DNA of 27,427 bases from a virus (IMGVR_UViG_3300037465_000435:1-27427), one strand, 5' to 3'; counted from the first letter of the stretch, positions 10,661-26,484 are shown. The notes: generated from the sequence alone by a model not told the origin. Numbers and translations are program-made.

Positions 10661-10667
10661 AACACGC

Positions 10668-11324: not shown

Positions 11325-11818
11325 GGAGACGTCGGCTCATGTTGGGGAGGAAAGTTCAGTCGCGCGAATGGTCCGGAGCGCTTGAGAGCGGCGCGGTCAT
11401 ATGCGCGGGCTGCGAGCTCCGCGGTTGTGAATCGACCGAGATAGATCGTGCGGTAATCGACGCTGATCTGTGCGGTCCACTCGCCGTTCGATGCCGGGTG
11501 CACTCCACGGAATCCAGTCTTGTTGTGTTTCGGCAAGCGCCGATTGCTCTGCCTTTGTTGTGCATCTGCCACAGCAAGATTGGAGCGGCGATTGTCGAGA
11601 CCGTTGTTGTTGCGATGTATGACTTGAGTTCCCGCTCCAACACCCAGGAGGGACCGATGCATCGTCAGCCATTGCCTGCTCGCACGGGATCCAACAGCTC
11701 TCACCGCATGAAGGCATCCCTTTCGATTGCGAAGAGACCATTTGAACTCAGTCACCGACGGATAGTCCGCGTCGTCGACAATCGCACTGGCACCCTTGGA
11801 GAGCGACACGGTCTTCAT
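11036..11818 (-). CDS. HNH-AP2 domain protein (homing-endonuclease-like), degenerate HNH site, C-terminal tail overlapping the endolysin
   Basis: AIVDDADY, MHR, HRNNNGLDNRRSNL, TGFRGV, YLGRF...AARAYD...FARLNFP. The recognisable fold ends near 11348. Confidence 0.85.
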   Translation of the reverse strand: MKTVSLSKGASAIVDDADYPSVTEFKWSLRNRKGCLHAVRAVGSRASRQWLTMHRSLLGVGAGTQVIHRNNNGLDNRRSNLAVADAQQRQSNRRLPKHNKTGFRGVHPASNGEWTAQISVDYRTIYLGRFTTAELAARAYDRAALKRSGPFARLNFPPQHEPTSPCEESYLPSSSAAPSPRVSFSPLVTLWAWMMQTLKRWAFSTTSSPPGPPTASRSIQSPPLHNSEFLSDHNSESASSPTQSSLLHNGSKNSTAFRKE

Positions 11819-11831
11819 CAGAGTGAGCGTA

Positions 11832-11887
11832 GAAAATGAAAAAGCCCCGATGCGGTTCTCTTTCGGCGAGAGAACTACATCGGGGCT
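11832..11887 (-). terminator. Leader hairpin with U-rich tail (attenuator, copy 1)
   Basis: AGCCCCGATG...CATCGGGGCT stem with inner GTTCTCT/AGAGAAC, followed by TTTTCATTTTCT. Confidence 0.8.
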
Positions 11888-11932
11888 CCTTATGATCGGA
11901 TGACCCTCGGTGGGCGGTTACGGCCCTATGTC
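11881..11932 (-). promoter_or_regulatory. Conserved late-operon leader element, copy 1
   Basis: GACATAGGGCCGTAACCGCCCACCGAGGGTCATCCGATCATAAGGAGCCCCG, 47/52 identical and ungapped against 23938-23989. Confidence 0.9.
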
Positions 11933-11949
11933 ACTTCAATTGCTGAACC

Positions 11950-11978
11950 AACTTACGAAGTCACGGAGAGTTTGTCAA
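11950..11978 (-). promoter_or_regulatory. sigma70-type promoter of the leftward late operon
   Basis: TTGACA (11978-11973), 17 nt, TAAGTT (11955-11950). Ends 17 nt before leader copy 1. Confidence 0.8.
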
Positions 11979-12005
11979 GTCCCTGAATGACCTCGTCAAC
12001 CGCTT

Positions 12006-12734
12006 CTATTCGGTCGACATCGTATCTGCCGGATTCGAAACGGCCGCCTTGACAGGGTTTCTTTGGCCGAACGTAAAATCTATTGTGATGTTGCCAGTCA
12101 GCAGCCCAAGGACGAAGCCCACAATCAGGCCGGCGGCAACTCGCACGATCAGCTTGTAGGCTCGGTCCTTTCTGTTTGATCGCGCTGCTCGGATGCTGCA
12201 TTCGTGAAACGCATTCGCAGCGAGAGAAATTTGCTCATGGATGACTTTGAGCCGGTCAACGTCGACGATGTAGGCTTCGATGACTCCAACAATATTTGAG
12301 CTCAGGTCTTTCGCCGCTCGATGTTTGGCAAAGCTCTCTCCGATTTTGGCGATTTCGCGCTTTAGATTCCAGTAGTTTGGGAGCACTTCCGTAAGAATCG
12401 CGGCACTGTATGGTCGAACAGTCGCTTCGATCATCTCCTTCAGAGAGATCTGAGTTCCATCTAGAGCGTCAAACCCGGCCCTAAAGACATGGCCAATTGC
12501 CTTGTCGATATTCTCCGAGAAGGATGCTTCGTCTTCAACGCCACCAACATGATGGAGCTTCTTGTGAAATGCTGCCATCGTATGATCGAAGGCGTCCCTG
12601 AATTCCTTGATTGTCTGAATGTTCGACTTCGAGTGCGGGTCGATCTCCTCACTATACAACACCAACGTCTTCACCTGCACATACAAATCGACAAGCCTGA
12701 GCAGCGTCTCACGTTCGTGCGTTGAGAGCGTCAT
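12006..12734 (-). CDS. Accessory protein with RxxxxH (HEPN-like) motif and C-terminal transmembrane helix
   Basis: All-helical, with EFRDAFDH and GHVFRAGFDALD, and a TM segment LIVRVAAGLIVGFVLGLLTG. Visibly more AT-rich than the structural genes. Confidence 0.7.
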   Translation of the reverse strand: MTLSTHERETLLRLVDLYVQVKTLVLYSEEIDPHSKSNIQTIKEFRDAFDHTMAAFHKKLHHVGGVEDEASFSENIDKAIGHVFRAGFDALDGTQISLKEMIEATVRPYSAAILTEVLPNYWNLKREIAKIGESFAKHRAAKDLSSNIVGVIEAYIVDVDRLKVIHEQISLAANAFHECSIRAARSNRKDRAYKLIVRVAAGLIVGFVLGLLTGNITIDFTFGQRNPVKAAVSNPADTMSTE

Positions 12735-12803
12735 GATGGGCAGTCCACTGCGATGGTGGGGAAGTGCGCGCTTGTACCCTGATGGGATTTTGGGCGAACG
12801 AGC

Positions 12804-13067
12804 CTAAGGAAGCTGGAGAGCTTCCACGCGGCGCGCCCGTTCGCGGAATTCAGAAGGCGTATAGTACCGACCGTTCTTGAGTCGGACCGAGCCTCTGATG
12901 CGAGGAGCATATCTCGATGCTGACTCCCGATTGAAGGAATCAGGATCGGAATCAGGAAACTCGCGGCCAATGACGTCCTCGAGCCTCTGAGCGCCGATTG
13001 TCTTTAGGAGAATGGACAAAATCTCCTTGCGGATGGAGAAGGTCTTGCTCATGACGATTCTTGCCAT
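12804..13067 (-). CDS. Small hypothetical protein, probable partner of the downstream gene (start may be 13052)
   Basis: Co-oriented ORF with a RGSVRLKNGRYYT...EF motif. Confidence 0.6.
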   Translation of the reverse strand: MARIVMSKTFSIRKEILSILLKTIGAQRLEDVIGREFPDSDPDSFNRESASRYAPRIRGSVRLKNGRYYTPSEFRERARRVEALQLP

Positions 13068-13366
13068 AATGGCTTGTCACCGCTGGCGCGGCGACCGTGT
13101 GAGCCGGTCAACAACTCATCACCGGACAGGAAATTGCATTTGGAAGTTCCTGACTCCTTCTAGGGTTGGAGAAGAAGTCCCCTGGGTTACACTTGACCAC
13201 CGTAGCTGGATGCGGGCGCATCCAGAGTAGACGGCGACCCCACACGAGTAGCCATGCACAGCGAATACAAGTTAACGCATGTCCGAAACAACCGCAACAG
13301 TCAAACCCTGATTAGAAATACGTCACAGACGGTAGATGGTTTCGAGTCCAATCCTTAAAGAATCAA

Positions 13367-13382
13367 TGTGACGTTCGTCACA
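13367..13382. promoter_or_regulatory. Palindrome matching the CRP-type core TGTGA-N6-TCACA
   Basis: TGTGACGTTCGTCACA in a ~420-bp intergenic region. Confidence 0.4.
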
Positions 13383-13433
13383 CGGCTCCGGAAAACTAAC
13401 CGCGAACGAGAGTGACCGGCATCTGATTCCACG

Positions 13434-13468
13434 TGCGCCCGGAGTGTCTCCGGACCGCAGTTTTTTTT
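13434..13468 (+). terminator. Intrinsic terminator-like hairpin, plus-strand orientation
   Basis: CCGGAG-TGT-CTCCGG stem extended by TGCG/CGCA, then T8. Confidence 0.55.
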
Positions 13469-13492
13469 CCCGACGCGACGACCGAGGATTCA

Positions 13493-14302
13493 TCAAAGTT
13501 CAAGCTGCTGCGGCGAAGTGGACGGGCGATCGGTCGTGGCCTGGAGAGTTACGTTCGATGGGGGGTAGTCGATTCCCCGTTTGTTCAGTATATCCTCGAT
13601 CGTCAAGAGCTGCAATCGAGGGTACTTCTTGTTCCATCCTTTCGAGTGATAGAATCCTGCGGAGGCACATTCTTTTACCATGTCCTTTGTTGGATCCTCC
13701 AGAGTAATGAGCACGCCAATCTCGGCCTCTTCCCTGTCGAGGACGCCGCGCAAATCCCTGATGTCTCTAACAGAGACTGATCCCGACTTAACCGACAGTA
13801 TGATTTCCTTCGTCTTCCCCTTTGCCTCGTCGTGGAAGTAGATTCTTCCGTCGATTCCCTTGTCGGGACCCTTCTTCTGCTCTACGGGCCGCGCACCAAC
13901 GAGTCCGAGTGCCCAGAATTGAAATTGGAACCGGTCTTCCTTTGATAAAGACACCGCGTCTGGCAACGAGACAGGTTCTCCCACCACATCAAATCGAGCT
14001 TCGCCCTGGAACGAACGTGAGAGCCTATGCTTGATCAGAGCAATCGCAAGATGCGTGATGTCAATGCCGACCCAGGTGCGTTGTTGCTTCTGGGCAGAGT
14101 AGATTGTTGTTCCGCAGCCACAGAATGGGTCCAAAACTACGCCGTCTTTTGGACATGCCGCGTTGATGATCCTATCCAAAAGGCCAATGGGTTTCTGAGT
14201 CGGATAGCCTAACCTTTCGGGATCTGTTGTACCCAGCCAAGCAACATCTGCGTCGAGTTCAGTTTCTTCGCTTCGTACTCGATCCGTGCCTTCGCCAGCC
14301 AC
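13493..14302 (-). pseudogene. 5'-truncated N4/N6 DNA methyltransferase-Mrr-like endonuclease fusion
   Basis: Has YPTQKP, VLDPFCGCGTT (SAM-binding) and DKGIDG...SVK, but no DPPY/DPPF catalytic motif or N-terminal half. Its 5' end overlaps the immA-like gene. Confidence 0.75.
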
Positions 14303-14670
14303 GGCGACACGCTGTGTCGATCGACTAGCGCTTCGATCGAATCATTCCATTTGACTATGGGAATGCGACAGAGCGCCGCGAACAATGTCGCTGCGCGCTC
14401 TTCCTTGATCGCATAGTGCATCGTGCAAGTCGAGTCGTGGAAGTGATGCCACAACTCATGCCAGGCCCAATCGCGCCGCTCTTGAAACGACAGAGAAGAG
14501 TTCAGGATGATCGCTCGATAACCGCTCACGCGCACGTACACACCGAACACGTCCGGACTCAACCCCTCTTTGGTGTGGACGATTCCTTCCTTCTCACAGA
14601 TCGTTTTGAACGAAAGCGGTGTCCCGTATTCCTCCACGAGCTTCAGATAGAACCGTTCAACCGACCGCAT
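14209..14670 (-). CDS. ImmA/IrrE-family metallopeptidase (anti-repressor)
   Basis: IILNSSLS...RRDWAWHELWHHF (HExxH), later EERAATLFAA. Starts 4 nt after the repressor stop. Confidence 0.88.
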   Translation of the reverse strand: MRSVERFYLKLVEEYGTPLSFKTICEKEGIVHTKEGLSPDVFGVYVRVSGYRAIILNSSLSFQERRDWAWHELWHHFHDSTCTMHYAIKEERAATLFAALCRIPIVKWNDSIEALVDRHSVSPWLAKARIEYEAKKLNSTQMLLGWVQQIPKG

Positions 14671-14674
14671 CTCC

Positions 14675-15064
14675 TCACTTCTTCTTTCGAAACGCCTCCT
14701 TGATGATGCGTCGAGCCTGATCTATTTGTCCAGGCTCCAGCTCCGACAATCCATCAACGATCTTCTGCATCGCTTCTCGCATTTCTTTGCTCAACCCCGC
14801 CGGAGCATGGAAGGCGACGAACGCCTCTGTCTCTGATTTCTTCTTCGTCCCCCCACCCTTGTCGCCCGTCATCAGCCACTCGATGTCGCAGCCAAGCTCC
14901 CGTAGCCTCGCCTGCATCTTGTTGCCCGGCCGGATCGCGCCGGACATGTAGTTGCTTAACGTGGACTGGGGAATACCCAAGGCCTCAGCAAATGCCTTGA
15001 GATTGGAAAACCGGCTTAGCCCGAATTCCCGTATCCGCACGCCAATCTTGGCAGTATCAGTCAT
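14675..15064 (-). CDS. XRE-family phage repressor
   Basis: FAEALGIPQSTLSNY HTH and DIEWLMTG. Divergent from the early operon. No S24 autoprotease domain. Confidence 0.9.
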   Translation of the reverse strand: MTDTAKIGVRIREFGLSRFSNLKAFAEALGIPQSTLSNYMSGAIRPGNKMQARLRELGCDIEWLMTGDKGGGTKKKSETEAFVAFHAPAGLSKEMREAMQKIVDGLSELEPGQIDQARRIIKEAFRKKK

Positions 15065-15087
15065 GTAAAGAAATCTTCAATTCGTAC

Positions 15088-15116
15088 TTGACACGACTTA
15101 CAGAAATATGTAAGTT
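15088..15116 (+). promoter_or_regulatory. Early promoter (sigma70-type)
   Basis: TTGACA (15088-15093), 17 nt, TAAGTT (15111-15116). Confidence 0.85.
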
Positions 15117-15135
15117 GTCCGTGAACTTATTCACG
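15093..15135. promoter_or_regulatory. Candidate operators overlapping the early promoter
   Basis: Inverted repeats ACTTACA-N6-TGTAAGT (15096-15115) and CGTGAA-N4-TTCACG (15120-15135). Confidence 0.6.
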
Positions 15136-15149
15136 AAGCGACCGCACTC

Positions 15150-15335
15150 ATGATCTCTCCGAAGCCCCTATCTGTCGAGATCCTGCTGCTCCGTAAAGGC
15201 ATCAGCCGTCGCGATCTCATGAAACAATTCCGCGTCGGTCCCGCTGCAATCTCGATGGCGCTCTCGGGTCAACGGCTTTCGCTTCTGAAGCGGATTCACC
15301 ACTTCGCCAAGACCACAGAGAGGAAGGCAGCCTGA
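15150..15335 (+). CDS. Ner/Cro-like HTH regulator
   Basis: 61 aa, GISRRDLMKQFRVGPAAISMALSG. First gene divergent from the repressor. Confidence 0.8.
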   Translation: MISPKPLSVEILLLRKGISRRDLMKQFRVGPAAISMALSGQRLSLLKRIHHFAKTTERKAA

Positions 15336-15400
15336 AGTGAAGACGCCTTCCTCGGCTTCCCTAGAGATGCTGTTTAAAGGGGTCTTAGAGGCCCACTTAT

Positions 15401-15410
15401 GGGGGGGGGG
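15401..15410 (+). repeat. G10 homopolymer tract
   Basis: Ten consecutive G, followed by AATTTGTTCCCCC (can form a GGGGGAA/TTCCCCC hairpin). Confidence 0.9.
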
Positions 15411-15437
15411 AATTTGTTCCCCCTCGAAAGGTAGGCA

Positions 15438-15770
15438 ATGGTAGGCATTCGGGCAAGGATGGCCACTGGAGGCCTGACAATCAAGGGGCTCGCTCGCGAA
15501 CTGGGCACTCCGCCTATCTCCATCCGGCATTTCCTCAACCGTCGATGGGACAGGCTCGGCCGCCGGCGCCGTCAACTTATCCGCCAATTCCTGATTCACA
15601 AGGGGTTGATCGATCCACCGAAGCCCCGTCCGAAATGCGTCTGCGTTCACTGCGGCAAAGTCCACGTTCGTCCTCGCAATCCATTTGCTGGTCCACGGCA
15701 ATCTACACCGACCACGTCTGCCGCACAATCAGAAACCGTTGAGATGAATTCCGCAAGAGGAGATCGATGA
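15438..15770 (+). CDS. HTH protein with a Cys/His cluster
   Basis: LTIKGLARELGTPPISIRHFLN HTH and CVCVHCGKVH. Confidence 0.7.
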   Translation: MVGIRARMATGGLTIKGLARELGTPPISIRHFLNRRWDRLGRRRRQLIRQFLIHKGLIDPPKPRPKCVCVHCGKVHVRPRNPFAGPRQSTPTTSAAQSETVEMNSARGDR

Positions 15771-16054
15771 AAGCGCTTGACGACAGATACGAGGAGATGG
15801 TGGCGCGGGGAGAGATCACAAATCCTTCACTGAAGAGGGACGCCAACGGTCGATTAGTACTTGGCCCAGACGGGCTTGCAGTCGAGTTGGGTATGTATCT
15901 CGAGCGCCGCCGAGAGCGCGAAGCCTCCCGGTCGCGCCAACAAATCGATCGAACAAGAACACGCGCTCTTCGTTGGACAACAGTGCTGCGATTAATCCCA
16001 TTTGCGTTTCGTCTTCAGATTCTACGATTCGCGCGATGGCGTCATCGACTATGA
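15767..16054 (+). CDS. Hypothetical protein
   Basis: AGAGGAG SD and ATGA overlap with the previous gene. Much of it overlaps an antisense ORF. Confidence 0.5.
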   Translation: MKALDDRYEEMVARGEITNPSLKRDANGRLVLGPDGLAVELGMYLERRREREASRSRQQIDRTRTRALRWTTVLRLIPFAFRLQILRFARWRHRL

Positions 16055-16226
16055 GAATGTTCTCGCTCCTCAATCGCTCTAGAGTCTTGCGTTCTCCGAA
16101 TAGGAGGAGCGATTTGCCGAGTTGGAGGGTCTGTCGCCTGGTAAAGACGAGATCCAGAAGCGAATCAACCTCGGCAAGCACCTGCGAGGCAGTTAGTTCG
16201 ACAGTTTCTGGTTCGTAAGTATTCAT
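15816..16226 (-). CDS. Hypothetical antisense-oriented protein within the early operon
   Basis: ATG 16226 (MNTYEPETVEL), amphipathic helical composition, fills a plus-strand coding gap. Confidence 0.45.
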   Translation of the reverse strand: MNTYEPETVELTASQVLAEVDSLLDLVFTRRQTLQLGKSLLLFGERKTLERLRSENILIVDDAIARIVESEDETQMGLIAALLSNEERVFLFDRFVGATGRLRALGGARDTYPTRLQARLGQVLIDRWRPSSVKDL

Positions 16227-16263
16227 ACCGAGAACGTACTGAGCTTTTCCTGCGAGAGCAATT

Positions 16264-16602
16264 GTGAAAGATCTGCCCGTCATACTCTACGCTACGATCA
16301 GCACCTGGGAGATTGCCGAACGCATCCGACGGCGGGATCTCGCCTTCGATGCGTGGGCGCATGTCGCGAAGCTCATCGGGCACAAGAACCCATCGACGCT
16401 GCGGAAGATGTGTGAGCCGCACGGCAACCACTACGGCGCGAAGCTCGGCTTCCGTGAGGCCGTGCTGATCATGAACGAGACCAAAGACTATCGCCTTTTC
16501 CACTTCATGAAGGAAGAGATGAAGAAGATGGCGCAGCATGAAGGAGATCAGATGGACCTGTTCGCTCACCCGATCCGATCCCTCAATCCTATGATCGACT
16601 GA
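16264..16602 (+). CDS. Phage regulatory CII-like HTH protein
   Basis: AHVAKLIGHKNPSTLRK...KLGFREAVLIMNETKDYRL pattern, directly before the transposase. Confidence 0.65.
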   Translation: MKDLPVILYATISTWEIAERIRRRDLAFDAWAHVAKLIGHKNPSTLRKMCEPHGNHYGAKLGFREAVLIMNETKDYRLFHFMKEEMKKMAQHEGDQMDLFAHPIRSLNPMID

Positions 16603-16604
16603 CC

Positions 16605-18449
16605 ATGTCAGAGCGTGAACCAGAGATCCGGCCGATACCGGCCAGCAAGGTTACCGATGAGCTCGTCGCCCGCACGGCCGACCTCATCGCACTGATGCGC
16701 ACGACGCAGAACCTCACCGAAGCGCAGAGCGCGGCCGCGGAGAAGATGGGTATCAGCGTGCCGACGATCCGATGGTATCTCAGCCGCATTCGTCAGAAGC
16801 TCGGCGCGCCCAAGCGTGCGTCGCTTGCGGAACTCGCAGCACATCCGGAAGTCCGGCGCGCGATCGAAGCGGTGCTAACAAGGAAGGAACGAGCGGATCG
16901 ATTGTCGCTCCAGTCGGCGCGACATCTCAACGTCATCATGCCGAGCGGCGAACGCCTGGGCGTCGACGACTTTCTCAAGTCGCTGTATCCAAGAGAAGGC
17001 GTGAACGCAAGCGCATGTTACGCGGCTCTCAAAGGGCGCTGCATCCAGCATCAAGTCGTCTTCGACGACGGATCGCCGGCGTCCGTGGTTGATCTACCGA
17101 AGGAGCGGAGCATCCGCCGGTTCCTGCAGCAATGGAGAGAAGAGTTCATCGCCGTCCGGCGGGGACGCGCGCGCAAGCACGATTTCGAGGTGGAGCAACA
17201 ACCGTACGTCACGCGCGACGTGTCCCGGTATCGACCTGGCGAGCTCTGGATCGGCGATCACACGGAGCTCGACTTCGCCGTTATAAATGCGCGCGGCTAT
17301 GTCGACCGCCGGTGGATCAGTTCGTTCCTCGACATCCGGACCGGCCTGATCGTCGGCTATCATCTCTCCTGGCAGCCGAACTCGCAGACGATCTCGCTGG
17401 CGTTCCGCAACGGCGTTCTTGGTACGCAGCTGCGCGCGTTCACGGCCGAGAACAAGTACAAACCCGTCTCCATACGCAACGTGCCCGAGACGGTGATGAT
17501 CGACAACGGCAAGGACTACCGGTCAAAACAGACACAGCGACTCTTCGGCAAGATCGATTTCGACGACGCGGCGCGTCTTTCGATCCAGCGCCTCACGCAT
17601 CTCCAGTATGTGCTTCCGTACCACGGTCAATCGAAGGCGCAGCAGGAGCGTTGGTTCCGCGTCATCCAACAGATGATCCGGCACCTGCCAGGCTACAAAG
17701 GCAACAAGTACCAGAACAAGCCCGACTCCTATGCAACCGATGTCAGGCAGGGCCGCCTCCTACCGTATGCGCAGTTCGACGCCCTGGTGGCGATCGCGGT
17801 CAACGTTTACAACAACCGCGTTCGACGATCGCTCAAAGGCCAGTCTCCGCTTCAGTGCTATCTCACCAACCAGACGCATCAACGCGCCATCGACGAACGC
17901 GTGCTCGACTTCCTGTTGATGAAGGTCGAGGGTCGGCGAATCCGCCGGTGCCAGGTGACACTCTTCTCGAAGGAGTATTACTCCGACGCGCTGATGGGCG
18001 TGAACGAAGAGATGGCCGATGTCTACTACGATCCAAAGGACCTGGGATTCGTGACGGTGTACGTGCATGGCGAGTTCGCGGCTGTCGCGAGCAACAAAGA
18101 GATGATCGGGCAGGACGAGAAAGGCTGGCTCCGCATCCTGCGCGACCGGACGAAGTCGGAGCGTGAGATGAAATCACAGCTCGCGGCGATTAAGCAAGGC
18201 GTGAGCGATGCGGATGCGCGGCGGATGCTGGTCGAGGGTGAGCTGCTGAACGTCGTGCCGGTCCTGGAGGAAGTGTTCACGCGACGTCCGCTCGAGATCA
18301 CGCAGATCACCGGGCTTGAGCAGCAGGCGAAGGAACATCAGGAGGCGCTCGATCGTGAGAAGGAGTCGGCGGAGATCGAGCGTGAAGCTAAGAAGAAACG
18401 GAAACAGAGCCATCTCAGCGTCGCGGCGATGAACAGCCGCATTGTCTAG
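16605..18449 (+). CDS. MuA-like DDE transposase
   Basis: WIGDHTELD, MIDNGKDY and SKAQQERWF triad, N-terminal HTH, Mu-type C-terminal YYDPKDL domain. Confidence 0.95.
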   Translation: MSEREPEIRPIPASKVTDELVARTADLIALMRTTQNLTEAQSAAAEKMGISVPTIRWYLSRIRQKLGAPKRASLAELAAHPEVRRAIEAVLTRKERADRLSLQSARHLNVIMPSGERLGVDDFLKSLYPREGVNASACYAALKGRCIQHQVVFDDGSPASVVDLPKERSIRRFLQQWREEFIAVRRGRARKHDFEVEQQPYVTRDVSRYRPGELWIGDHTELDFAVINARGYVDRRWISSFLDIRTGLIVGYHLSWQPNSQTISLAFRNGVLGTQLRAFTAENKYKPVSIRNVPETVMIDNGKDYRSKQTQRLFGKIDFDDAARLSIQRLTHLQYVLPYHGQSKAQQERWFRVIQQMIRHLPGYKGNKYQNKPDSYATDVRQGRLLPYAQFDALVAIAVNVYNNRVRRSLKGQSPLQCYLTNQTHQRAIDERVLDFLLMKVEGRRIRRCQVTLFSKEYYSDALMGVNEEMADVYYDPKDLGFVTVYVHGEFAAVASNKEMIGQDEKGWLRILRDRTKSEREMKSQLAAIKQGVSDADARRMLVEGELLNVVPVLEEVFTRRPLEITQITGLEQQAKEHQEALDREKESAEIEREAKKKRKQSHLSVAAMNSRIV

Positions 18450-18460
18450 AAGGAGACCAC

Positions 18461-19411
18461 ATGGCAGCTCAAGCAGCGATCAACCGTCTCGACCTGGTCG
18501 AGCGGGCGAAATTCAATCAAGACAAACCCCGCGAAGTCCTCGCAACCATCAAGGGACTCCTGGAGTCGGGGGAGATCCGGCTCAAGGACATCGCCAAATT
18601 CGGCAACTACAGCCAGTCGGTCATCAGCCAGTTCCTCTCGGGCGACTACGCCGGCGATGTGGCCTCGGTGGAGGATGTCGTCGTGCGGTTCTACCGGTAC
18701 TGGGTGGCCAACAATGCGATCGTGCAGACGAAGGTTGTGGAAGAGATCCACGCCGTTATGACGCTCGCCTGGAAGCGCAAGGAGATCGCGCTCGTGAAGG
18801 GGCACTTCGGCCGAGGAAAGACGAAGGCGGCCTCGCGGTTTGAGGCGTTGAACGACTTCGCGATACGTGTGGAGCTCTCGGGCGTCACCTCGCCGACCGA
18901 GCTCTTGCACCGGGTCGGCGACGCCCTGGGGATCGCTTCATCGATGTCCGGTTCGCGCAGCGACAAGCTGCAGGCGATCGTCCGCAATCTCCAGCGCTCA
19001 CCGAAGTTGATCATCATCGACGAAGCCGACGAGCTGCGACCGCGGACGCTCGCTCTACTGAAGGACATTCACGGCGAGGGAACCGAGCGGTGCGGCATCG
19101 TTCTGATCGCCACCCAACGCTTCGACCGGTTGTTGAAGAACCCGGAGCTCGGCTACCTGCGCCGGCGCATTACGATCAAGCGTGAGATCGGCGACATCGA
19201 TCTGAAGGAAGCCAGGGAGATCGTCGCCCTGTGGCCGAACAGTCTGGACACCGAGGACCTGAAGAAGGCCTTCAGCTGGAGCATGAACCACTTCGGCGTC
19301 GCCTCCTTGGTCAACCTGATGATGCGAGCCTATGACGAGATGCAGCTGCGCGCGAAGCGGAAGATTGACGAAGAATGTCTCGAGGCCGCCTATGCTTGGC
19401 TGGTTGACTGA
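18461..19411 (+). CDS. MuB-like AAA+ transposition ATPase
   Basis: N-terminal HTH, Walker A GHFGRGKT, Walker B IIIDEAD, AAGGAG SD. Confidence 0.95.
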   Translation: MAAQAAINRLDLVERAKFNQDKPREVLATIKGLLESGEIRLKDIAKFGNYSQSVISQFLSGDYAGDVASVEDVVVRFYRYWVANNAIVQTKVVEEIHAVMTLAWKRKEIALVKGHFGRGKTKAASRFEALNDFAIRVELSGVTSPTELLHRVGDALGIASSMSGSRSDKLQAIVRNLQRSPKLIIIDEADELRPRTLALLKDIHGEGTERCGIVLIATQRFDRLLKNPELGYLRRRITIKREIGDIDLKEAREIVALWPNSLDTEDLKKAFSWSMNHFGVASLVNLMMRAYDEMQLRAKRKIDEECLEAAYAWLVD

Positions 19412-19607
19412 TCACGCCGACATCATCTTCGCACAGCTGCTCGGAGTCACCGGGTCGACCATGATGCTCTTGCTGAGTGCGACGGTGCGATTGAAGATGA
19501 GCAGCCGAAGGAGAATGGTTCTGTCGCTCCTGGCGACGGCGATGATGGCCGGCGGCATATTCTATCTCCTCGCGGCCTTGAACGCCGAACGATCACTGTC
19601 GAGGTAG
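19392..19607 (+). CDS. Small two-TM membrane protein
   Basis: Two hydrophobic segments. Start chosen at ATG 19392. Confidence 0.55.
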   Translation: MLGWLTDHADIIFAQLLGVTGSTMMLLLSATVRLKMSSRRRMVLSLLATAMMAGGIFYLLAALNAERSLSR

Positions 19608-19611
19608 AGCG

Positions 19612-20061
19612 ATGGCCTGGGATCGATCAGTCAGAGACCGAGCGAATGCTCTCATCCATACGTCGGTGGACGATTGTCGTTCATCGCTGCCGCACATCAC
19701 AGACATCCGGGTGTTGAAGTGCGCGCTCTTCATCGCAGAAGAGTTTCGCCACTTTACGCGCAGCGCCTTGCTCCGGAGTCGGTTGAGGCAACTCCAGAAA
19801 GAAATGGCTGAACGTGCTGTCACTCGCAGATCCAATGGCCATCAACGACCTCGACCAACGGCTGACGCTGGCGATCAAGGACACGATCTATCGGGTCGTG
19901 GGGAACGACACAACCGCCCAGATCTTGAAGGCGGACGTCTTCTCTCATCCAGCAATCGAGACACGTCCGGGGATCGGAACATACGTGAGCATCAAGCTCA
20001 AGGTCGAAGTGAATCTGAAGCCGTGACCCGATCCTCCAAACAGACCCAACGGAACAAGTGA
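19612..20061 (+). CDS. Hypothetical protein (C-terminal half overlaps another ORF)
   Basis: GAGG SD. The first ~65 aa look folded, the tail is low complexity. Confidence 0.55.
   Translation: MAWDRSVRDRANALIHTSVDDCRSSLPHITDIRVLKCALFIAEEFRHFTRSALLRSRLRQLQKEMAERAVTRRSNGHQRPRPTADAGDQGHDLSGRGERHNRPDLEGGRLLSSSNRDTSGDRNIREHQAQGRSESEAVTRSSKQTQRNK
19835..20026 (+). CDS. Hypothetical protein (63 aa), nested in another frame
   Basis: MAINDLDQRLTLAIKDTIY... has a protein-like composition, whereas the overlapping frame does not. Confidence 0.5.
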   Translation: MAINDLDQRLTLAIKDTIYRVVGNDTTAQILKADVFSHPAIETRPGIGTYVSIKLKVEVNLKP

Positions 20062-20549
20062 TGGATCCGGTAGCACGACGACGGCTCAACCACCAGGTGC
20101 GAGCTCTGGCCAACGGCCGGCTCGGACTTGACGAGGAGACGTACCGGGCCATCGTGGAATCAGTCGATCCACGGAGCGGCGGCCACATCACACGGTGCGA
20201 CGATGAGCATGCCGGGCTGGTCCTGCTGCAGCTGAGACTGATGGTCGATCGGCAGCGATTCGGCGGTCCGAAGAAAAACGATCGCGAGCAACGCAAGATC
20301 GCGCGACTGATGCAGTATCTGAATTGGACGTGGAAGACGACAGCCGAGTTCTGCGAACGTCAGACCGGCAAACGGTCGACGCGATTATGCGACGCCAAGG
20401 AACTGGCGAAGGTCATCAACGGAATGGTGGCGATCATCGAAGAAGACATTCGATCCGGACGCCTGCAGCTGACGCCGGCCGAACGAGCAGAGTTCGCACG
20501 CCATACACATACACGGTTTGACGATCTCCAAGGAGGAGCCAATGCCTGA
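20058..20549 (+). CDS. GemA-like (DUF1018) regulatory protein
   Basis: LGLDEETYRAIV...QRKIARL...FCERQTG...LAKVINGM, in the Mu semi-essential region position. Confidence 0.8.
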   Translation: MMDPVARRRLNHQVRALANGRLGLDEETYRAIVESVDPRSGGHITRCDDEHAGLVLLQLRLMVDRQRFGGPKKNDREQRKIARLMQYLNWTWKTTAEFCERQTGKRSTRLCDAKELAKVINGMVAIIEEDIRSGRLQLTPAERAEFARHTHTRFDDLQGGANA

Positions 20550-20964
20550 GCTGATCCTGTCCTTTGTTGTCGTCGCGTCGATCGCGACGCTCGTGCTGCT
20601 TCTGCGTTCGGCGCGTCGCAGCGGAGAGGGATTCATTCTGTGTCGCCCGGACAGCAGGCGCTGTCCTCAACTTCGAGAACTGCGGGACGTGGAGGACTCC
20701 ATCGAAGAGCATGTGGATCGGTTGCGCATGGAGTACCTGCGTCGAGAGATGGCCCAGAAGTATCCAGGGCGCAGTTACTCTTTTCAACTCGCGGAGCTCT
20801 ATCGGCAGCGGGGAGCACTTGTGGCGTCGCGCCGAGGTGGAGATCCGGATCGAACGGATTGGATCAGAGACCGGATCCTGCTCGCGCGCGAGCGGGCGCT
20901 GCTGAGTCAGTCACACGCAGAAGTCACAAGTTCATTCAGTCGAGTCGAGCCCCAACGGGCCTGA
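20542..20964 (+). CDS. Hypothetical protein with N-terminal TM helix
   Basis: AAGGAGG SD before ATG 20542. Hydrophobic N-terminus. Confidence 0.65.
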   Translation: MPELILSFVVVASIATLVLLLRSARRSGEGFILCRPDSRRCPQLRELRDVEDSIEEHVDRLRMEYLRREMAQKYPGRSYSFQLAELYRQRGALVASRRGGDPDRTDWIRDRILLARERALLSQSHAEVTSSFSRVEPQRA

Positions 20965-21006
20965 CCGGATTCCATCACAGAAGTTCTAATAGAGGGAGAG
21001 GCGAGC

Positions 21007-21366
21007 ATGACAGCCATCAAGAAGTACGCAAAGTTCCTGCGCCGGCAGAAGGCGTATGGGCGGATCCTCGAGGATCTGAAGCCGGAAGTTCTGCGGGAAC
21101 TCAAGCGCCGTCCGGACGGCAAGGCGGCCGTCGACGGCGTCGAGTTCCATATCACCACGAAGGTGACGCGGCGCTATCCGAAGGATATTCAGGACATCCT
21201 GAAAGACCTGCAGGCGCAGATCGATCAGCAGAAGAAGGTGGCCGAAGAATCGAACAAGGTCACCCTCAGCGAGACGGCGACGTTCGACGCCTCGATCCCG
21301 AAGAGCGCGGAAGACGAGGTGCTCTCGGAGGTCCCGGACTACAAGAAACACTTCGGGACACGCTGA
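21007..21366 (+). CDS. Hypothetical protein (119 aa)
   Basis: Purine-rich SD, typical codon usage, coupled to the next ORF. Confidence 0.75.
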   Translation: MTAIKKYAKFLRRQKAYGRILEDLKPEVLRELKRRPDGKAAVDGVEFHITTKVTRRYPKDIQDILKDLQAQIDQQKKVAEESNKVTLSETATFDASIPKSAEDEVLSEVPDYKKHFGTR

Positions 21367-21611
21367 TGCCGATCGACCTCGACACTACGCCCGAGTCGTT
21401 GCGACGTATGCGGGAGAGCATTATCGAGTCGGCCGGCGGCAACCCTATCGGTGAACGGGGCGGCCTGGTGTGGTTCACGGACCTCGTCACGAAGACGACG
21501 CTGGTCTTGGAGCCACACCAGGTCACGGCCGAACGTGTCCGGGAGAAGATCCTCGCAAGTCGCAGGAGCTTCGGCATCAGGGACGACCATGCACTATCCA
21601 GCCATGCTTGA
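21366..21611 (+). CDS. Hypothetical protein (81 aa)
   Basis: TGATG coupling. This is the plausible 3' part of the track ORF 20640-21611. Confidence 0.65.
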   Translation: MPIDLDTTPESLRRMRESIIESAGGNPIGERGGLVWFTDLVTKTTLVLEPHQVTAERVREKILASRRSFGIRDDHALSSHA

Positions 21612-21795
21612 GAGTCTCTACTCAGCCATCAAGTTCATCGTGCGGCACGAGGGCATTCCGCACGATGTCGTGTTCGAAGCGGCCGAAGCGGCGGCCAGAG
21701 TGATCACACGCCACCAGCGACAAAGAAGGAGCCATGAGGAACCTGACAGAGAAGAAGCGCGATCTGATCGCACAGCTGAAAGCGTACCGGCGTAA
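21589..21795 (+). CDS. Hypothetical protein
   Basis: Fills the gap before the next gene. Start uncertain. Confidence 0.4.
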   Translation: MHYPAMLESLYSAIKFIVRHEGIPHDVVFEAAEAAARVITRHQRQRRSHEEPDREEARSDRTAESVPA

Positions 21796-22510
21796 GCACC
21801 GCTCCATTCCGAACTCTCGGGCGCTCGGCGAGCCTTTCAAGCACCGGGTTCAACGGGCCTTTGGAACGTGGAATGGTGCGATCGCAGAGGCATTCGGACC
21901 GGAAGTTGTCCAACGACGACTGACGGACGCGGAAGTCCTGGAGCGGATACGAAGATACGCAAAGGAAACCAATCAGCGTCCGACGTCGAAAAATGTTGGC
22001 GACACCTTCGGGCGTCTCGCGAGGGAACGGTTTGGATCGTGGAACAAAGCTGTGGAACTCGCCCTTGGCTTGCCGCCTCTCAAGGTGAAGCGATCCGATG
22101 ATGAGTTGCTGGAAATCTTGCGACGTAAGTATGCCGAGCTCGGCCGACTGCCGTTCGCGAGCGACGTCGAGTCAATCACCACGCGACTCTGGAAGCGCTA
22201 TGGCGGTCTCAATGAAGCCCTCGAGCGGGCCGTTGGCACGAGCGTGCGACTCGAAGTGCTGCGCGCACTCAAGGTACTCACGCCCCCCGGATGCGAGGTG
22301 GCATCGAGCCACGAGATCTCGGTCTACTTGAAGACACAACGTGGCGTTCAGTTCGATGTGCATCAGGTGGGTTCGATGTTGGAGACGCAGTACCGGGTGG
22401 GCCTGGTGGAGAAAAGCGCCGGCGACGTTCGACCGACGTGGCGATTGACGGCGAAGGGACATGAGTTCCTTCGGATGAAGGAGAATCAACATGCAGGACG
22501 ACGGTCTTGA
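21734..22510 (+). CDS. Protein with three homing-endonuclease-associated repeats and a C-terminal winged helix
   Basis: Repeats FGTWNGAIAEA, FGSWNKAVELA, YGGLNEALERA, then GLVEK...WRLTAKG. AAGGAG SD. Confidence 0.8.
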   Translation: MRNLTEKKRDLIAQLKAYRRKHRSIPNSRALGEPFKHRVQRAFGTWNGAIAEAFGPEVVQRRLTDAEVLERIRRYAKETNQRPTSKNVGDTFGRLARERFGSWNKAVELALGLPPLKVKRSDDELLEILRRKYAELGRLPFASDVESITTRLWKRYGGLNEALERAVGTSVRLEVLRALKVLTPPGCEVASSHEISVYLKTQRGVQFDVHQVGSMLETQYRVGLVEKSAGDVRPTWRLTAKGHEFLRMKENQHAGRRS

Positions 22511-22715
22511 GGAGATCCGCCCCGGCGCAGAGTGTCCGCCTGGGCTTCATAGCGATGTCCCGATCATCGAAGGCGGCCAGACGGTCGGACTCATCTGCAC
22601 ACTTTGCGGACGCTCCGTGCGAGAGGACATGGCATACAGCACACTCGTAGCAACGGAACGCGGCCTTGTCGATCTCCGCGAGCAACCACATCGGAGGCGG
22701 GATCCGCGCTTCTGA
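22491..22715 (+). CDS. Small putative Zn-binding protein
   Basis: CPPGLH...CTLC, AAGGAG SD. Confidence 0.6.
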   Translation: MQDDGLEEIRPGAECPPGLHSDVPIIEGGQTVGLICTLCGRSVREDMAYSTLVATERGLVDLREQPHRRRDPRF

Positions 22716-22721
22716 ACGATC

Positions 22722-23132
22722 ATGGGCCGCTACGTCAAGAACAGGATCCGGATGGAGGCCGTCGAGCGGTTCGGGCAGACGGCGGGACTCCCGTTGTTCG
22801 AGGCGGTAGGTCCGAGGATCCCGAAGCGGTTTCGAACGCGGCTCGAGAATGCCGCGAAGTCGATGCCGTTAGCGACGGACACCCGGAACCTTGCGCGCAT
22901 TGCTCAGACGAGCGATCCGGTCGAACTCGGCGACAAGCAGCAGAAGGTCCTTGACGCCATCCGAGACCTGGGCGCTCCGACGAATGCGGAGATCGCGCGT
23001 CATCTGGACTGGCCGATCAATCGAGTGACCGGACGGACGTTCGAGCTCCGGCAGTACGGACTGGTAGCTGAGAATGGTAAACGAGCATGTTCGGTGACGC
23101 GCCGGATTGTGGCGACGTGGCAATCTAAATGA
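22722..23132 (+). CDS. Winged-helix DNA-binding protein
   Basis: QQKVLDAI...TNAEIARHLDWPINRVTGRTFEL...GLV. Confidence 0.8.
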   Translation: MGRYVKNRIRMEAVERFGQTAGLPLFEAVGPRIPKRFRTRLENAAKSMPLATDTRNLARIAQTSDPVELGDKQQKVLDAIRDLGAPTNAEIARHLDWPINRVTGRTFELRQYGLVAENGKRACSVTRRIVATWQSK

Positions 23133-23150
23133 GAACGAGAACCGTGTCTC

Positions 23151-23369
23151 GTGGACCATGGTAGTATGCTCCCATTCCCACGCTCATACTACATCCGCAG
23201 CTTCCGCGACTGGAAGAGAATCAATTATCCGGACGCCGAATGTGAATGCATTGAGAACGCCTTTGGTGACGTCATTTACTGCGAGGAGTGTGAGACGCAG
23301 TTCGCAGAGTATTGCCAGATCCGAGATCAACAGGCAGCAATTCGTGACCAAATGTTCGGTCTTCAGTAA
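23151..23369 (+). CDS. Small Cys-rich protein
   Basis: CEC...CEEC, TAATG coupling with the next gene. Confidence 0.6.
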   Translation: MDHGSMLPFPRSYYIRSFRDWKRINYPDAECECIENAFGDVIYCEECETQFAEYCQIRDQQAAIRDQMFGLQ

Positions 23370-23647
23370 TGATCCGCTCGCAGCAGAGACGTCGGGAATT
23401 GGCAATGCTGGAGATCTTGGCGACTCAACCCAAAGGTTGGACCAGGATCGAGTTGACCAGTGAACTTCGCGTCTCCCCGGCAACTCTCGACCGGACGCTC
23501 GGCAATTTGCTGTTGCGAGGACTCGTGTTCGCTCGGCCGATAAATGAACGACGGAACGGCCGACCCGTGAACCGGTACTATTGTACGCTCGAAGGCGTCA
23601 AGTCGTTGAATCAACAATTCCGTCGATCTGCCCAGAAGTCTCGTTAG
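23369..23647 (+). CDS. Winged-helix transcription regulator
   Basis: WTRIELTSELRVSPATLDRTLGNL...GLV...GRPVNRYYCT. Confidence 0.8.
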   Translation: MIRSQQRRRELAMLEILATQPKGWTRIELTSELRVSPATLDRTLGNLLLRGLVFARPINERRNGRPVNRYYCTLEGVKSLNQQFRRSAQKSR

Positions 23648-23655
23648 CACGTCGC

Positions 23656-23874
23656 ATGCCCAAGCTTCCACAACTCATCGAGCTTCTCGAGGCGATGTCG
23701 CGATCGGGCACGGAGAAGATCGGACTCTCGGATCTACTCGACCTTCTGCGAAAGGTGGACTCGACGACATCGCATGTCAAGATCGAGATCAACTACAATG
23801 GGAGGGAGTTCTTCTGGACGGTCCACCAGCGGGACATCCTCGCGGCCGACTGGAAGCCGTCCGGATCAGGCTAA
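23656..23874 (+). CDS. Small hypothetical protein (72 aa), last early gene, directly before the late promoter
   Basis: ATG 23656. Two helices followed by a predicted beta hairpin (VKIEINYNGREFFWTV). Confidence 0.65.
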   Translation: MPKLPQLIELLEAMSRSGTEKIGLSDLLDLLRKVDSTTSHVKIEINYNGREFFWTVHQRDILAADWKPSGSG

Positions 23875-23889
23875 TAGGAATTGCATCGT

Positions 23890-23918
23890 TTGATTCAGCC
23901 GGTCGAATTCACTAGATT
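23890..23918 (+). promoter_or_regulatory. sigma70-type promoter of the rightward late (terminase) operon
   Basis: TTGATT (23890-23895), 17 nt, TAGATT (23913-23918). Ends 19 nt before leader copy 2. Confidence 0.7.
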
Positions 23919-23937
23919 GCTGACCACTGAGATTCAC

Positions 23938-23989
23938 GACATAGGGCTGTAAGAGCCCAACGAGGGTCATCCGATCAAAAGGAGCCCCG
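23938..23989 (+). promoter_or_regulatory. Conserved late-operon leader element, copy 2
   Basis: GACATAGGGCTGTAAGAGCCCAACGAGGGTCATCCGATCAAAAGGAGCCCCG, 47/52 identical to the reverse complement of 11881-11932. Confidence 0.9.
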
Positions 23990-24049
23990 GTGTGGTCGTC
24001 GTCCGCAACTTGCGGAACGGCGGCTGCGTCGGGGCTTCGTCCTTTTCTT
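23983..24049 (+). terminator. Leader hairpin with pyrimidine tail (attenuator, copy 2)
   Basis: About 25-bp stem AGCCCCG...CGGGGCT with several G-U pairs, then TCGTCCTTTTCTT (imperfect U-tract). Confidence 0.65.
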
Positions 24050-24058
24050 GTCCACACC

Positions 24059-24550
24059 ATGGCACGCAAACTCGACCGCATCGAGGCCAAGCGCCTCTAC
24101 TGTGAAGAGAAGAAAGAGGTCAAAGAGATCTCGCGACTTCTCTCGGTGCCCGAAGGCACGATCTACGCTTGGAAGAGCGCCGATGCCGAAAGGGGCAACG
24201 ACTGGGACAAGATGCGGGAGGAGATTCAGCTGACGTCCTTCTCTGCTACGAAGGACATGCTCCGCATGGTGACGGCCAGGCTCTCGGCCATGGCTGATGA
24301 ACTGACGAAGGCCGGTCCGGATGGGGCGAAGATCAACCCATCCGAAGTCTACGCCATTCGACAGCTGCTCAAGAGCCTGAAGGAACTGCAAAAGGACGTC
24401 GACCACTACGGCAACATTCTGCTCGCGATGCAGGAGTTCACCGACTTCATGGGCGACCGGGCGCCGGAACTTCTGCTGACGATGGAGCCCTATCTGCTCG
24501 AGTTCGGCAATACGATTTCCAAGAAGTACGGCCGTCGACGGAGTGGCTGA
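24059..24550 (+). CDS. Putative terminase small subunit (DUF1804-like)
   Basis: AKRLY...EISRLLSVPEGTIYAWK...DWDKMR, immediately upstream of and overlapping terL. Alternative in-frame GTG at 23990. Confidence 0.8.
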   Translation: MARKLDRIEAKRLYCEEKKEVKEISRLLSVPEGTIYAWKSADAERGNDWDKMREEIQLTSFSATKDMLRMVTARLSAMADELTKAGPDGAKINPSEVYAIRQLLKSLKELQKDVDHYGNILLAMQEFTDFMGDRAPELLLTMEPYLLEFGNTISKKYGRRRSG

Positions 24551-26207
24551 GATGGCGCTGATGACGCAAAAAGAATTCGAGCGTGAGTTCGGAGATCTGC
24601 TTTCGAGGATTCGGAAGCAGACGACAACGTTTCCGAATGACACGACGGAGCGGAAGCTCGCGCGGATCAAGCGCGCCCAGGTCGATAAGCTCTTCTTCGC
24701 GGTCACCTACTTCCCGCACTACATCCAAGTTTCGGAGGCGTTCCGCGAGTGCTGGAAGGACCCCGCCGGCAAGTACGATTGGGTGGCGGCCGGGTTCGCT
24801 CCGTTCCACGCCGAGTTGTTCAGGACCGCCGGCCTGCTCGATGTCTTCTCCATTGTGGCCGGTTTTCGTGAGTCGGCGAAGGACACGCTTCTCGGCAAGA
24901 TCGATGTCATCCACAAGATCGTGTTCGGCGATCGCTGGTTCATTCCCATCATTGCACGCACGGAGACGAAGGCCGAGACGAAGGTCATTCCCATTCGCCT
25001 GGAACTCGAAGAGAACTTGCGGCTCCGGAACGATTTCGGTGAACTGAAGGGATCGGTCGAGTGGGAGTTCGGATCGATCATCACAAAGACCGGTCGAAAG
25101 GTGAAGGGTTATGGCCGGGACCAGTCCCTCCGCGGTGAAGAGAACATGGGCCATCGGCCGGACTACCTGATGATCAACGACGTGAACGATCCGATGCTTC
25201 CCGATAGTCCAGGACAGGTCGCCAAGTATGTGGATGCCATCAAACAGACGGCGCTCAAGTCGGTCAACTCGCCCAGGTGGGGCGGGGTTATGCTCTGCAA
25301 CTGGACCGTGAAGGGCGACATCGTCGATGAGATGATCGCAGGCAAGAACACCGCTCATTTCAACAAGCTCATCGTGCGCGCACTGGTTCCGAACGAGAAG
25401 CGGACGAAGGAAGAGCGTGCGATTGCCAAAGCCTGCCGCGATGCCGGCTTCAAAGAAGACGAGCGTTCGGCCTGGGAGACACGCCACCCGACGGTGCGCC
25501 TGTTGCGGGATCAGAAGCAGGATCCGGATGTCTTTGATGCCGAAATGATGATGCGTCCCAGGAGCCGGAAGGATCAGCGTTTCAAGGACAGCTTCTTCCG
25601 ATTCCACGTCAGGGAGGATCTCGCCGGCCGGTCGTATGTGGCCTACACATTCGTGGATCCAAGCGCGAAGGAGGCTGGCGACTACAAGTCCGTCATCACA
25701 ATTGGAGTGGGACTGAATGCAGACGGAATGTTGCACCTGCCGATCCTCCGTTGTTCGATCCAGCAACAGTCGATCGACGACATGATGCTCGAGACCTATC
25801 GGCATCGACAGACCTACAGATCTAAGATCGTCGGCGTCGAGTCGAACGGCTTTCAAATCTTGCTCAAACGGGAGTATCTCAGACTGCAGCGAAAGCATGG
25901 CCCACTGCCGTTCCTTGAGGTGACGCATACCGGCGAAAGCAAAGAGAGCAGGATCGAGCGTATCGTGCCGTTTGTGAAGGAAGGAACGATCACCTTTGAC
26001 CGGGAAGACCCGGACCAGGAACTCCTGATCAGACAGCTGAAGGCGTTTCCAAATGCTGGCAACGTGAGTTCGGGAGGCTTGGGCGACGACGGCCCGGATG
26101 CACTCGCCGGCGCCGTCGAACTTGTTGAAGTCTATCCGCGCGCGACCGATGTAGGCTATGAAAGCCTTGGCCGGCGAGCGGCCGTCTTCGAAAGGGGGGC
26201 GTGGTGA
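24543..26207 (+). CDS. terL: Terminase large subunit
   Basis: ATPase-like N-half (FRESAKDT, LRG...RPDYLMIND) and RNase H-like C-half (FVDPSA, VESNGFQ, KESRI, FP...DDGPDALAGA). Confidence 0.9.
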   Translation: MAEMALMTQKEFEREFGDLLSRIRKQTTTFPNDTTERKLARIKRAQVDKLFFAVTYFPHYIQVSEAFRECWKDPAGKYDWVAAGFAPFHAELFRTAGLLDVFSIVAGFRESAKDTLLGKIDVIHKIVFGDRWFIPIIARTETKAETKVIPIRLELEENLRLRNDFGELKGSVEWEFGSIITKTGRKVKGYGRDQSLRGEENMGHRPDYLMINDVNDPMLPDSPGQVAKYVDAIKQTALKSVNSPRWGGVMLCNWTVKGDIVDEMIAGKNTAHFNKLIVRALVPNEKRTKEERAIAKACRDAGFKEDERSAWETRHPTVRLLRDQKQDPDVFDAEMMMRPRSRKDQRFKDSFFRFHVREDLAGRSYVAYTFVDPSAKEAGDYKSVITIGVGLNADGMLHLPILRCSIQQQSIDDMMLETYRHRQTYRSKIVGVESNGFQILLKREYLRLQRKHGPLPFLEVTHTGESKESRIERIVPFVKEGTITFDREDPDQELLIRQLKAFPNAGNVSSGGLGDDGPDALAGAVELVEVYPRATDVGYESLGRRAAVFERGAW

Positions 26208-26482: not shown

Positions 26483-26484
26483 GC

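Follow-up and report, generated by a model that had tools for sequence, protein, structure and literature searches.

In the LicT/SacY/BglG-RAT systems a protein factor holds a leader hairpin that overlaps a terminator, and the action is local, with one hairpin per terminator (accessible parts of PMC5393181 and PMC3575810). Here we analyze a comparable arrangement in a viral genome record from IMG/VR, IMGVR_UViG_3300037465_000435. This whole stretch of 27,427 nt (CheckV completeness 56%) is called the window below. The late genes of this Mu-like phage form two arms that both point outwards, a split that is kept in its relatives. Each arm of the window is preceded by a cassette that consists of a promoter-like site, a leader with a small bulged RNA hairpin (hereafter the box), and a terminator. 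As in the case of RAT, the hairpin overlaps the 5' arm of the terminator, and here the overlap is accompanied by covariation of three strands. However, RAT is unrelated to the box in sequence and shape, and it serves in sugar catabolism rather than in a late switch of a phage. No CAT RNA-binding or PRD domains were found in the scanned open reading frames (ORFs) of the window.

Targets of ANTAR regulators are two tandem hexaloop hairpins. The element described here differs from the ANTAR-regulated leaders (PMC3369936, as far as that source is accessible) in being a lone bulged hairpin whose loop has 8 nt, and no ANTAR domain was found.

At sequence level, the order of parts in the cassettes is similar to that of lambda pR'-qut-tR', in which a late promoter is followed by a short terminated leader and by the late genes. 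The regulator is expected from the preceding operon. Lambda Q targets DNA and a sigma-dependent pause, and its action is processive. In contrast, the conserved element of our cassettes is an RNA helix that is tied to the terminator and is not fixed to the promoter.

The boxB element of the N system needs boxA and Nus factors. N-nutL/nutR boxB and HK022 putL/putR share with our locus twin RNA elements, divergent operons, and a phage-specific loop type, but they are processive and have no terminator overlap, and put is a factor-free element of two stems (accessible part of PMC9378689). The box, with only one bulged hairpin, has 24 nt versus about 70 nt for put. Pfam scans revealed no N family, and alignment A5 has no boxA-like conserved sequence beside the box; the N protein is arginine-rich, and o136 of the window (see below) has an Arg-rich N-terminus.

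Pfam, PHROG, and NCBIfam scans of the ORFs show that the window belongs to a transposable Mu-like phage. It resembles the Mu system with its Mor/C activators (PMC12867686 and 10.1101/2025.05.02.651988, both accessible in part) in having transposase A/B, GemA, and Mu-like head genes and in the need to delay the late genes. The difference is that both cassettes have a good -35 hexamer (TTGACA, TTGATT) and no Mor domain was found; regulation seems to reside in the leader RNA. An initial annotation of the window recognized no Mor/C- or Q-like gene, and no such domain was detected by our Pfam scans of 43 ORFs.

A mobile element in which a terminator silences late or transfer genes until antitermination relieves it is also the setting of conAn of pLS20 (PMC8191782) and of the insulator terminator of Tn916 (PMC11658703), according to the accessible parts of these sources. 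In the same part of its description conAn is bipartite and processive, and nothing like the box was seen there. A review of RNA-binding antiterminators has no mention of phage or zinc, and our literature searches brought up no account of a switch of this kind for Mu-like phages. Control by competing antiterminator and terminator hairpins is a classical mechanism. The motif and its proposed twin use as a late switch in transposable phages are new.

The box hairpin and its terminator

We consider it fairly probable that the twin late operons are gated by a local antiterminator hairpin that is stabilised by a factor and competes with the terminator. In the window the element occurs exactly twice (coordinates of all features are given in Table 1). 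The top-ranked repeat of the record is a pair of inverted arms, 11874-11932 and 23938-23996, with a length of 59 nt and 88% complementarity; the runner-up inverted pair has 47 nt and 70%. A BLAST search with copy 2 against the whole record returned copy 1 at E 4.3e-17. The initial annotation had described the copies as identical at 47 of 52 positions and had seen the same series of promoter, leader, long hairpin, and gene before both late arms. We counted five mismatches in the 52-nt stretch and re-read the same layout and hexamers in the sequence; the long hairpins with a shared base and the first late gene 22-24 nt further on were confirmed by folds and coordinates. The promoter hexamers are followed by GACATAGGG after 17 nt (left) or 19 nt (right). 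The common base of the long hairpins is AGCCCCG/CGGGGCU, and the first ATG lies 24 nt (HNH gene, 11818) or 22 nt (DUF1804 gene, 24059) downstream of CGGGGCT. The left terminator's 5' base overlaps the 3' strand of the left box. The two whole leaders fold with -46 and -62 kcal/mol (z -4.4 and -4.5). The early operon ends 16 nt upstream of the right cassette promoter and the repressor-side operon 28 nt upstream of the left one; neither gap contains another terminator.

An exact search with a 16-mer of the core in viral contigs gave 33 loci, all of them in unrelated coding sequence. Therefore relatives were collected through the DUF1804 protein and not through the RNA element. A degenerate 25-mer of the element gave 5 loci in 3 records, one of which was new. 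Most of the DUF1804 relatives have the same layout upstream of the DUF1804 gene: TTGAC(A/T)-N17-TA(G)ATT, a leader that differs in length and sequence, the box with the consensus GGGUnAUCCGAUmAnAAGGAGCCCC, and an adjoining terminator whose 5' arm starts inside the box. Covariance model R1 scored the right and left boxes of the window at 46.3 and 45.6 bits, with 9.2 bits for the next best match, and the covariance models had no match in unrelated loci across 478 kb. No family of Rfam 15 matched the whole window at the gathering score; the best permissive matches reached 21.6 bits versus a threshold of 80 and 19.3 versus 46.

The conserved element is a 24-nt core, GGGU(CA)UCC[GAUCAWAA]GGAGCCC. 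It folds into a 4-bp helix P1 (GGGU/GCCC), a 2-nt bulge, a 3-bp helix P2 (UCC/GGA), and an 8-nt loop. Across the copies P1 has 4-5 bp, the 2-nt bulge is on the 5' side, P2 has 3-4 bp, and the 8-nt loop reads G-A-U-(C/A)-A-N-A-A. When folded alone, all 20 boxes of this type (type 1) adopt this shape with -6.8 to -13.7 kcal/mol. Pairing is kept in 77 of 77 cells among 11 boxes, with double changes at 4 of the 7 pairs, and in 112 of 112 cells among 16 boxes from 10 phage records, where double changes affect 5 of the 7 pairs (10 such cells); these counts refer to alignment cells and not to independent events. The observed values were reached by none of 500 shuffles of the 16 boxes; with the partner slid by one column, pairing fell to 61-63%. 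Natural variants of P2 include UCG/CGA, CGC/GCG, CUC/GAG, GUC/GAC, ACC/GGU, and the 4-bp UCUG/CAGA. A U-G pair is present in 15 of the 16 copies; the opposite strand would have a mismatched C-A in its place, which assigns the structure to the late-sense RNA. Comparison of these sequences thus shows that the hairpin is conserved as a structure under selection on RNA. The initial annotation had already proposed such selection and suggested a covariance model as a check; both the compensatory changes and the pair counts bear it out. Two of its details are not supported. The core, which it took for plain conserved sequence, is the covarying structure, and the small GGGC-GTAA-GCCC hairpin that it had pointed out is specific to the window and absent from the relatives.

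The loop type is common to both copies within a phage. For example, AACUA occurs twice in G001, loop position 4 is identical in both copies in five of five phages, and in G002 and G005 the two copies have the same loop on different stems. This hints at a phage-specific reader of the loop.

The 3' strand of the box is also the 5' base of the intrinsic terminator that follows it. Directly after 19 of the 20 type-1 boxes comes a hairpin with a U-rich tail and a folding energy of -25 to -45 kcal/mol; the exception is the second left copy of G008, where the terminator hairpin is present and the tail is weak. Three strands covary, namely the 5' strand of the box, the shared strand, and the 3' arm of the terminator. 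They read GGGU/GCCC/GGGGC in most copies, GGAU/GUCC/GGGAC in G005 right, CGGU/GCCG/UCGGC in G002 left, and GAGGU/GCCUC/GAGGC in G005 left. The variant (type-2) boxes of two prophages from metagenome-assembled genomes (MAGs) have GUCGGC/GCCGAC/GUCGGC (G007 left) and UCGGU/GCCGA/UCGGC. The shared strand and the joint change of all three strands point to an antiterminator/terminator switch. The variants of P2 keep the hairpin but are not expected to pair with the U-tract; P2 is hence more than a mere extension of the terminator. The interval between the -10 hexamer and the box varies from about 13 to 75 nt, whereas the join to the terminator is invariant in all 20 copies.

Six phage records including the window have one box copy facing each late arm. 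Model R1 detected two opposite-strand copies 13-17 kb apart in four of five related records (G001-G004); the second copy of the fifth, G005, has entirely different stems and was found by eye. Twenty cassettes of the relatives have the promoter-like pattern TTGAYW-N17-TAnrTT with a spacing of exactly 17 nt, a pattern written after the first examples had been seen. As the initial annotation would predict, each unit lies directly before a late operon. G008 has three box copies. Its left arm begins with promoter, box, and terminator, followed by one extra gene and then by a second box and terminator without a promoter, 0.8 kb downstream; its right box, also promoterless, lies about 30 nt past the last early gene. 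The promoterless boxes suggest that the box plus terminator is the core module, needed at each terminator. The MAG prophages G006 and G007 have the left cassette only, and the DUF1804 gene directly follows the early operon. Their type-2 boxes, confined to the left arm, have a longer loop (GAUUUAAGGA, GAUUUUAAGAGA); they were read by eye and are missed by the covariance models.

Because the box is locked to the terminator rather than to the promoter, is repeated at a second terminator in G008, and is far weaker than the terminator, a local antiterminator stabilised by a factor is the best reading. By default, transcripts from the cassette promoter would stop at the terminator and yield an RNA of about 105-125 nt, since the terminator (-25 to -45 kcal/mol) would outcompete the hairpin (-7 to -14 kcal/mol). 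Transcripts that arrive from the early operon (right) and from the repressor-side operon (left) would stop there too, and default termination would in this way insulate the late arms from both operons. A putative factor, likely made early in lytic growth, may bind the loop and the bulge and hold P1 closed. The closed P1 would withhold GCCC from the base of the terminator beside the U-tract, and RNA polymerase would enter the late genes. The action would be local, with one box per terminator, and not processive.

Weighing the alternative explanations

The box might instead be of the processive nut/boxB-N or put type, i.e., the hairpin would recruit a phage protein, or bind the polymerase itself, and make the polymerase resistant to terminators over the entire late operon, and its terminator overlap would be incidental. 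We regard this as unlikely. It would agree with a small hairpin that has a conserved loop, with two copies facing divergent operons as nutL/nutR and putL/putR do, with the same loop variant in both copies of G001, and with the length of the late arms (more than 11 kb on the left), which might need processivity. However, in 20 of 20 copies the box is joined invariably to the terminator while its distance to the promoter is variable, three strands change jointly with the terminator, and in G008 the box recurs at a second terminator 0.8 kb downstream. The left arm contains 7 terminator-like sites versus 9.3 expected, none of which stands out as strong, and scans of the ORFs revealed no N, Q, or NusG-like domain. 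Moreover, with a put-like element that needs no factor, the late genes would stay on from a constitutive promoter. Of the proposal in the initial annotation, the twin promoter-leader-terminator cassettes at the head of both late arms are supported; the analogy it drew with the processive pR'/qut, put, and conAn systems fits worse than local competition.

It is quite improbable, in our estimate, that the unit of about 100 nt is a small RNA gene, or that the hairpin acts in stability or processing or enhances the terminator, with the late genes switched not by it but by a DNA-binding activator such as the winged-helix protein o136. The unit does have a promoter-like site and a terminator of its own, and o136 is conserved, with an invariant PLF that recalls the clamp-binding motif of Mor/C (accessible part of PMC12867686). 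Nevertheless, the units lie directly before the late operons with no other promoter between, G008 has boxes without a promoter, and inspection by eye showed no conserved site ahead of the -35 hexamers. Activator-dependent late promoters of Mu are not known to have a near-consensus -35, whereas the -35 hexamers of the cassettes are near consensus. This explanation also leaves the sharing of GCCC between two conserved helices unaccounted for.

Very little weight can be given to an antiterminator of the lambda Q type that binds DNA and is loaded at the promoter or at a pause close to it, with the 24-mer as its DNA site. The layout is indeed like pR'-6S-tR' (a promoter, a short terminated leader, and late genes), and o97, the last of the early genes, has a place just upstream like that of Q. 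But compensatory changes keep the pairing and not the sequence, the position of the box relative to the promoter is not fixed, promoterless boxes occur, and the Pfam scans revealed no Q family. The probability that the repeat is due to chance, an assembly artefact, or a dispersed host repeat is negligible. The sole point for it is that the record is a metagenome assembly. On the other side stand the BLAST E-value of 4.3e-17, the contigs spanning both sites, the presence of just two copies in the record, and a position that is conserved across related phages, while all 33 exact 16-mer loci in viral contigs are unrelated; the comparative data refute this explanation. The checks suggested in the initial annotation thus gave neither an Rfam family in the window nor a dispersed repeat. 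Independent Logan contigs that cover 11137-17275 and 23632-24915 span the cassettes without differences, although the two runs may include the source sample. No joints were found among contigs aligned over 9000-27000, so there is no sign of an inverted isomer.

Several observations weigh against the local, factor-stabilised antiterminator. No RNA run containing the window sequence was found among public runs. The strict sigma-70 scan called neither cassette promoter, the strict terminator scan called neither long hairpin, and the tail of the right copy, GUCCUUUUCUU, is a poor U-tract. The overlap of box and terminator is 4-5 nt, which on sequence alone leaves room for a processive role. The sequences are few and related (about 12 lineages), and two of the alignments were hand-trimmed around the motif. 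Shared loops could also arise from gene conversion between the copies, which in G003 are near-identical over more than 60 nt. Finally, o74, the best candidate reader by phyletic distribution, is absent from G008 despite three normal boxes.

Candidate readers of the box

Protein o74 has the conserved core C...H...PIIEG...TVG..C..C..VRE. It was found in 8 box-bearing records and is missing from the two type-2 prophages as well as from G008; the latter absence excludes it as a universal reader. It may be regarded as a weak candidate for a protein that reads the hairpin. The family is rare, with 26 representatives in 1.84 billion proteins. A word-based search returned only o74 itself, Pfam assigned the window protein to no family at E<=1, no Com family (the zinc-finger RNA binder of Mu, a possible model for o74) was found among the 29 members scanned, and a fold search gave no match at E<=0.001. 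At the position of o74, just upstream of the o136 homologue, G006 and G007 encode a different small Cys/His protein. These type-2 zinc-finger proteins have no relatives in the other phages; a 25-aa match to one of them in the window was discarded, being in a frame without cysteines.

Protein o136 is present in all related phages whose record reaches its region, and it is a candidate for an alternative regulator. Its PLF lies within GQTxGLPLF in a predicted disordered N-terminal tail and resembles the clamp-binding motif reported for the Mor/C activators of Mu (PMC12867686, accessible part). Sequence and profile searches of PDB gave weak winged-helix matches only. The Atlas places o136 among phage winged-helix clusters and gave nothing usable for o97. 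The predicted model of o136 is poor (pLDDT 53.7).

A broader possibility, which we put forward only tentatively, is that a whole clade of Mu-like phages infecting freshwater and sediment bacteria has replaced Mor/C activation with a 24-nt RNA antiterminator ahead of each late arm, read by a new small protein, with the zinc-finger family of o74 and the winged-helix o136 as candidates. If so, this would be a compact and portable late-gene switch of a type undescribed for any phage. The proposed switch in the window and its relatives would itself show that Mu-like phages are not bound to Mor/C-type activation, that late genes can be timed by a leader RNA, and that two divergent late arms can be coordinated by twin copies. 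The 24-nt hairpin-terminator module with its dedicated reader would also make a useful small genetic part. The RNA motif itself is well supported; it marks early/late boundaries in uncultured transposable phages, which helps annotation, and opens a direct search for the RNA-binding regulator.

Features and gene plan of the window

Table 1. Positions of the cassette parts, candidate readers, and main genes in the window
Feature	Position	Strand	Remarks
Left late promoter-like site TTGACA-N17-TAAGTT	11978-11950	minus	read by eye, pattern match
Small hairpin GGGCCGUAACCGCCC	11912-11926	minus	folding; window only, not in relatives
Left box hairpin (predicted antiterminator) GGGU(CA)UCC[GAUCAUAA]GGAGCCC	11883-11906	minus	alone -11.2 kcal/mol
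Left intrinsic terminator hairpin	11839-11891	minus	-33.8 kcal/mol; U-tract UUUUU, then CAUUUUCU
HNH/AP2 homing endonuclease	11036-11818	minus	first gene of the left late arm
Right late promoter-like site TTGATT-N17-TAGATT	23890-23918	plus	read by eye, pattern match
Small hairpin GGGCUGUAAGAGCCC	23944-23958	plus	folding; window only, not in relatives
Right box hairpin (predicted antiterminator) GGGU(CA)UCC[GAUCAAAA]GGAGCCC	23964-23987	plus	alone -11.3 kcal/mol
Right terminator hairpin	23981-24038	plus	-45.4 kcal/mol; weak tail GUCCUUUUCUU at 24039-24049
DUF1804 / Mu gp27-like small terminase-type protein	24059-24550	plus	first gene of the right late arm; start set by homology
Large terminase	24543-26207	plus	next after the DUF1804 gene; Dam also in the right arm
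CI-type repressor	14675-15064	minus	ImmA-like protease and methylase/endonuclease fusion nearby on the same strand
Early operon	about 15150-23874	plus	includes MuB-like ATPase, GemA, small winged-helix proteins
Mu transposase A	16605-18449	plus	in the early operon
o74, 74 aa	22491-22715	plus	C-x4-H...C-x2-C motif, conserved RRKDPRF C-terminal end
o136, winged-helix (phrog_1123)	22722-23132	plus	Arg-rich N-terminus, invariant PLF
o97, conserved last early gene	23581-23874	plus	ends 16 nt before the right cassette

The boxes of the window contain AAGGAG, followed at 5 nt by a GTG in frame with DUF1804 in the right copy (23975-23992, plus) and by ATG-TAG in the left copy (11895-11875, minus). The true first late genes of the window have no Shine-Dalgarno sequence, while those of the relatives have one. 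A leader peptide was considered and rejected because neither start codon is kept in the relatives and AAGGAG itself covaries as part of P2. A role of Dam methylation was rejected as well, since GATC in the loop is limited to some copies.

The genome plan is unusual among Mu-like phages, with a central repressor/early block, terminase rightwards, and lysis, head, and tail genes leftwards. It is kept in the relatives, including prophages of MAGs that the record titles ascribe to Bacteroidota, Ignavibacteriota, and Kryptoniota. The left late arm of the window exceeds 11 kb; beyond the HNH gene it encodes, on the minus strand, a glucosaminidase, Mu I, Mu T, gp36, a tail-S-like protein, gp37, and a 918-aa protein. 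In the window and in G005 (6193-6678) the left cassette and the lysis gene are separated by an HNH/AP2 homing endonuclease, whereas in the other relatives a small membrane protein comes directly after the left cassette. The endonuclease gene looks like a mobile insertion at the leader-proximal position.

Some relatives have a second unit upstream of the o97-like gene, consisting of a promoter-like site and about 150 nt of GC-rich structured sequence. Such sites were seen in G003 (L085, 10354-10560), in G005 (about 19447), and in G001 (about 17098 and 12894, minus). The unit is similar between phages, has no Rfam match, and was not seen in the window.

A promoter-like site TTGACA-N17-TAAGTT at 15088-15116 (plus) may serve the early operon. 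The inverted repeat ACTTACA-N6-TGTAAGT spans its spacer and -10 hexamer and is likely the operator for the divergent repressor gene. On the repressor side, a 269-aa ORF (13493-14302, minus) combines the C-terminal portion of an N6/N4 DNA methylase domain with an Mrr-type endonuclease domain and overlaps the ImmA-like ORF by 94 nt; it may be truncated or fused.

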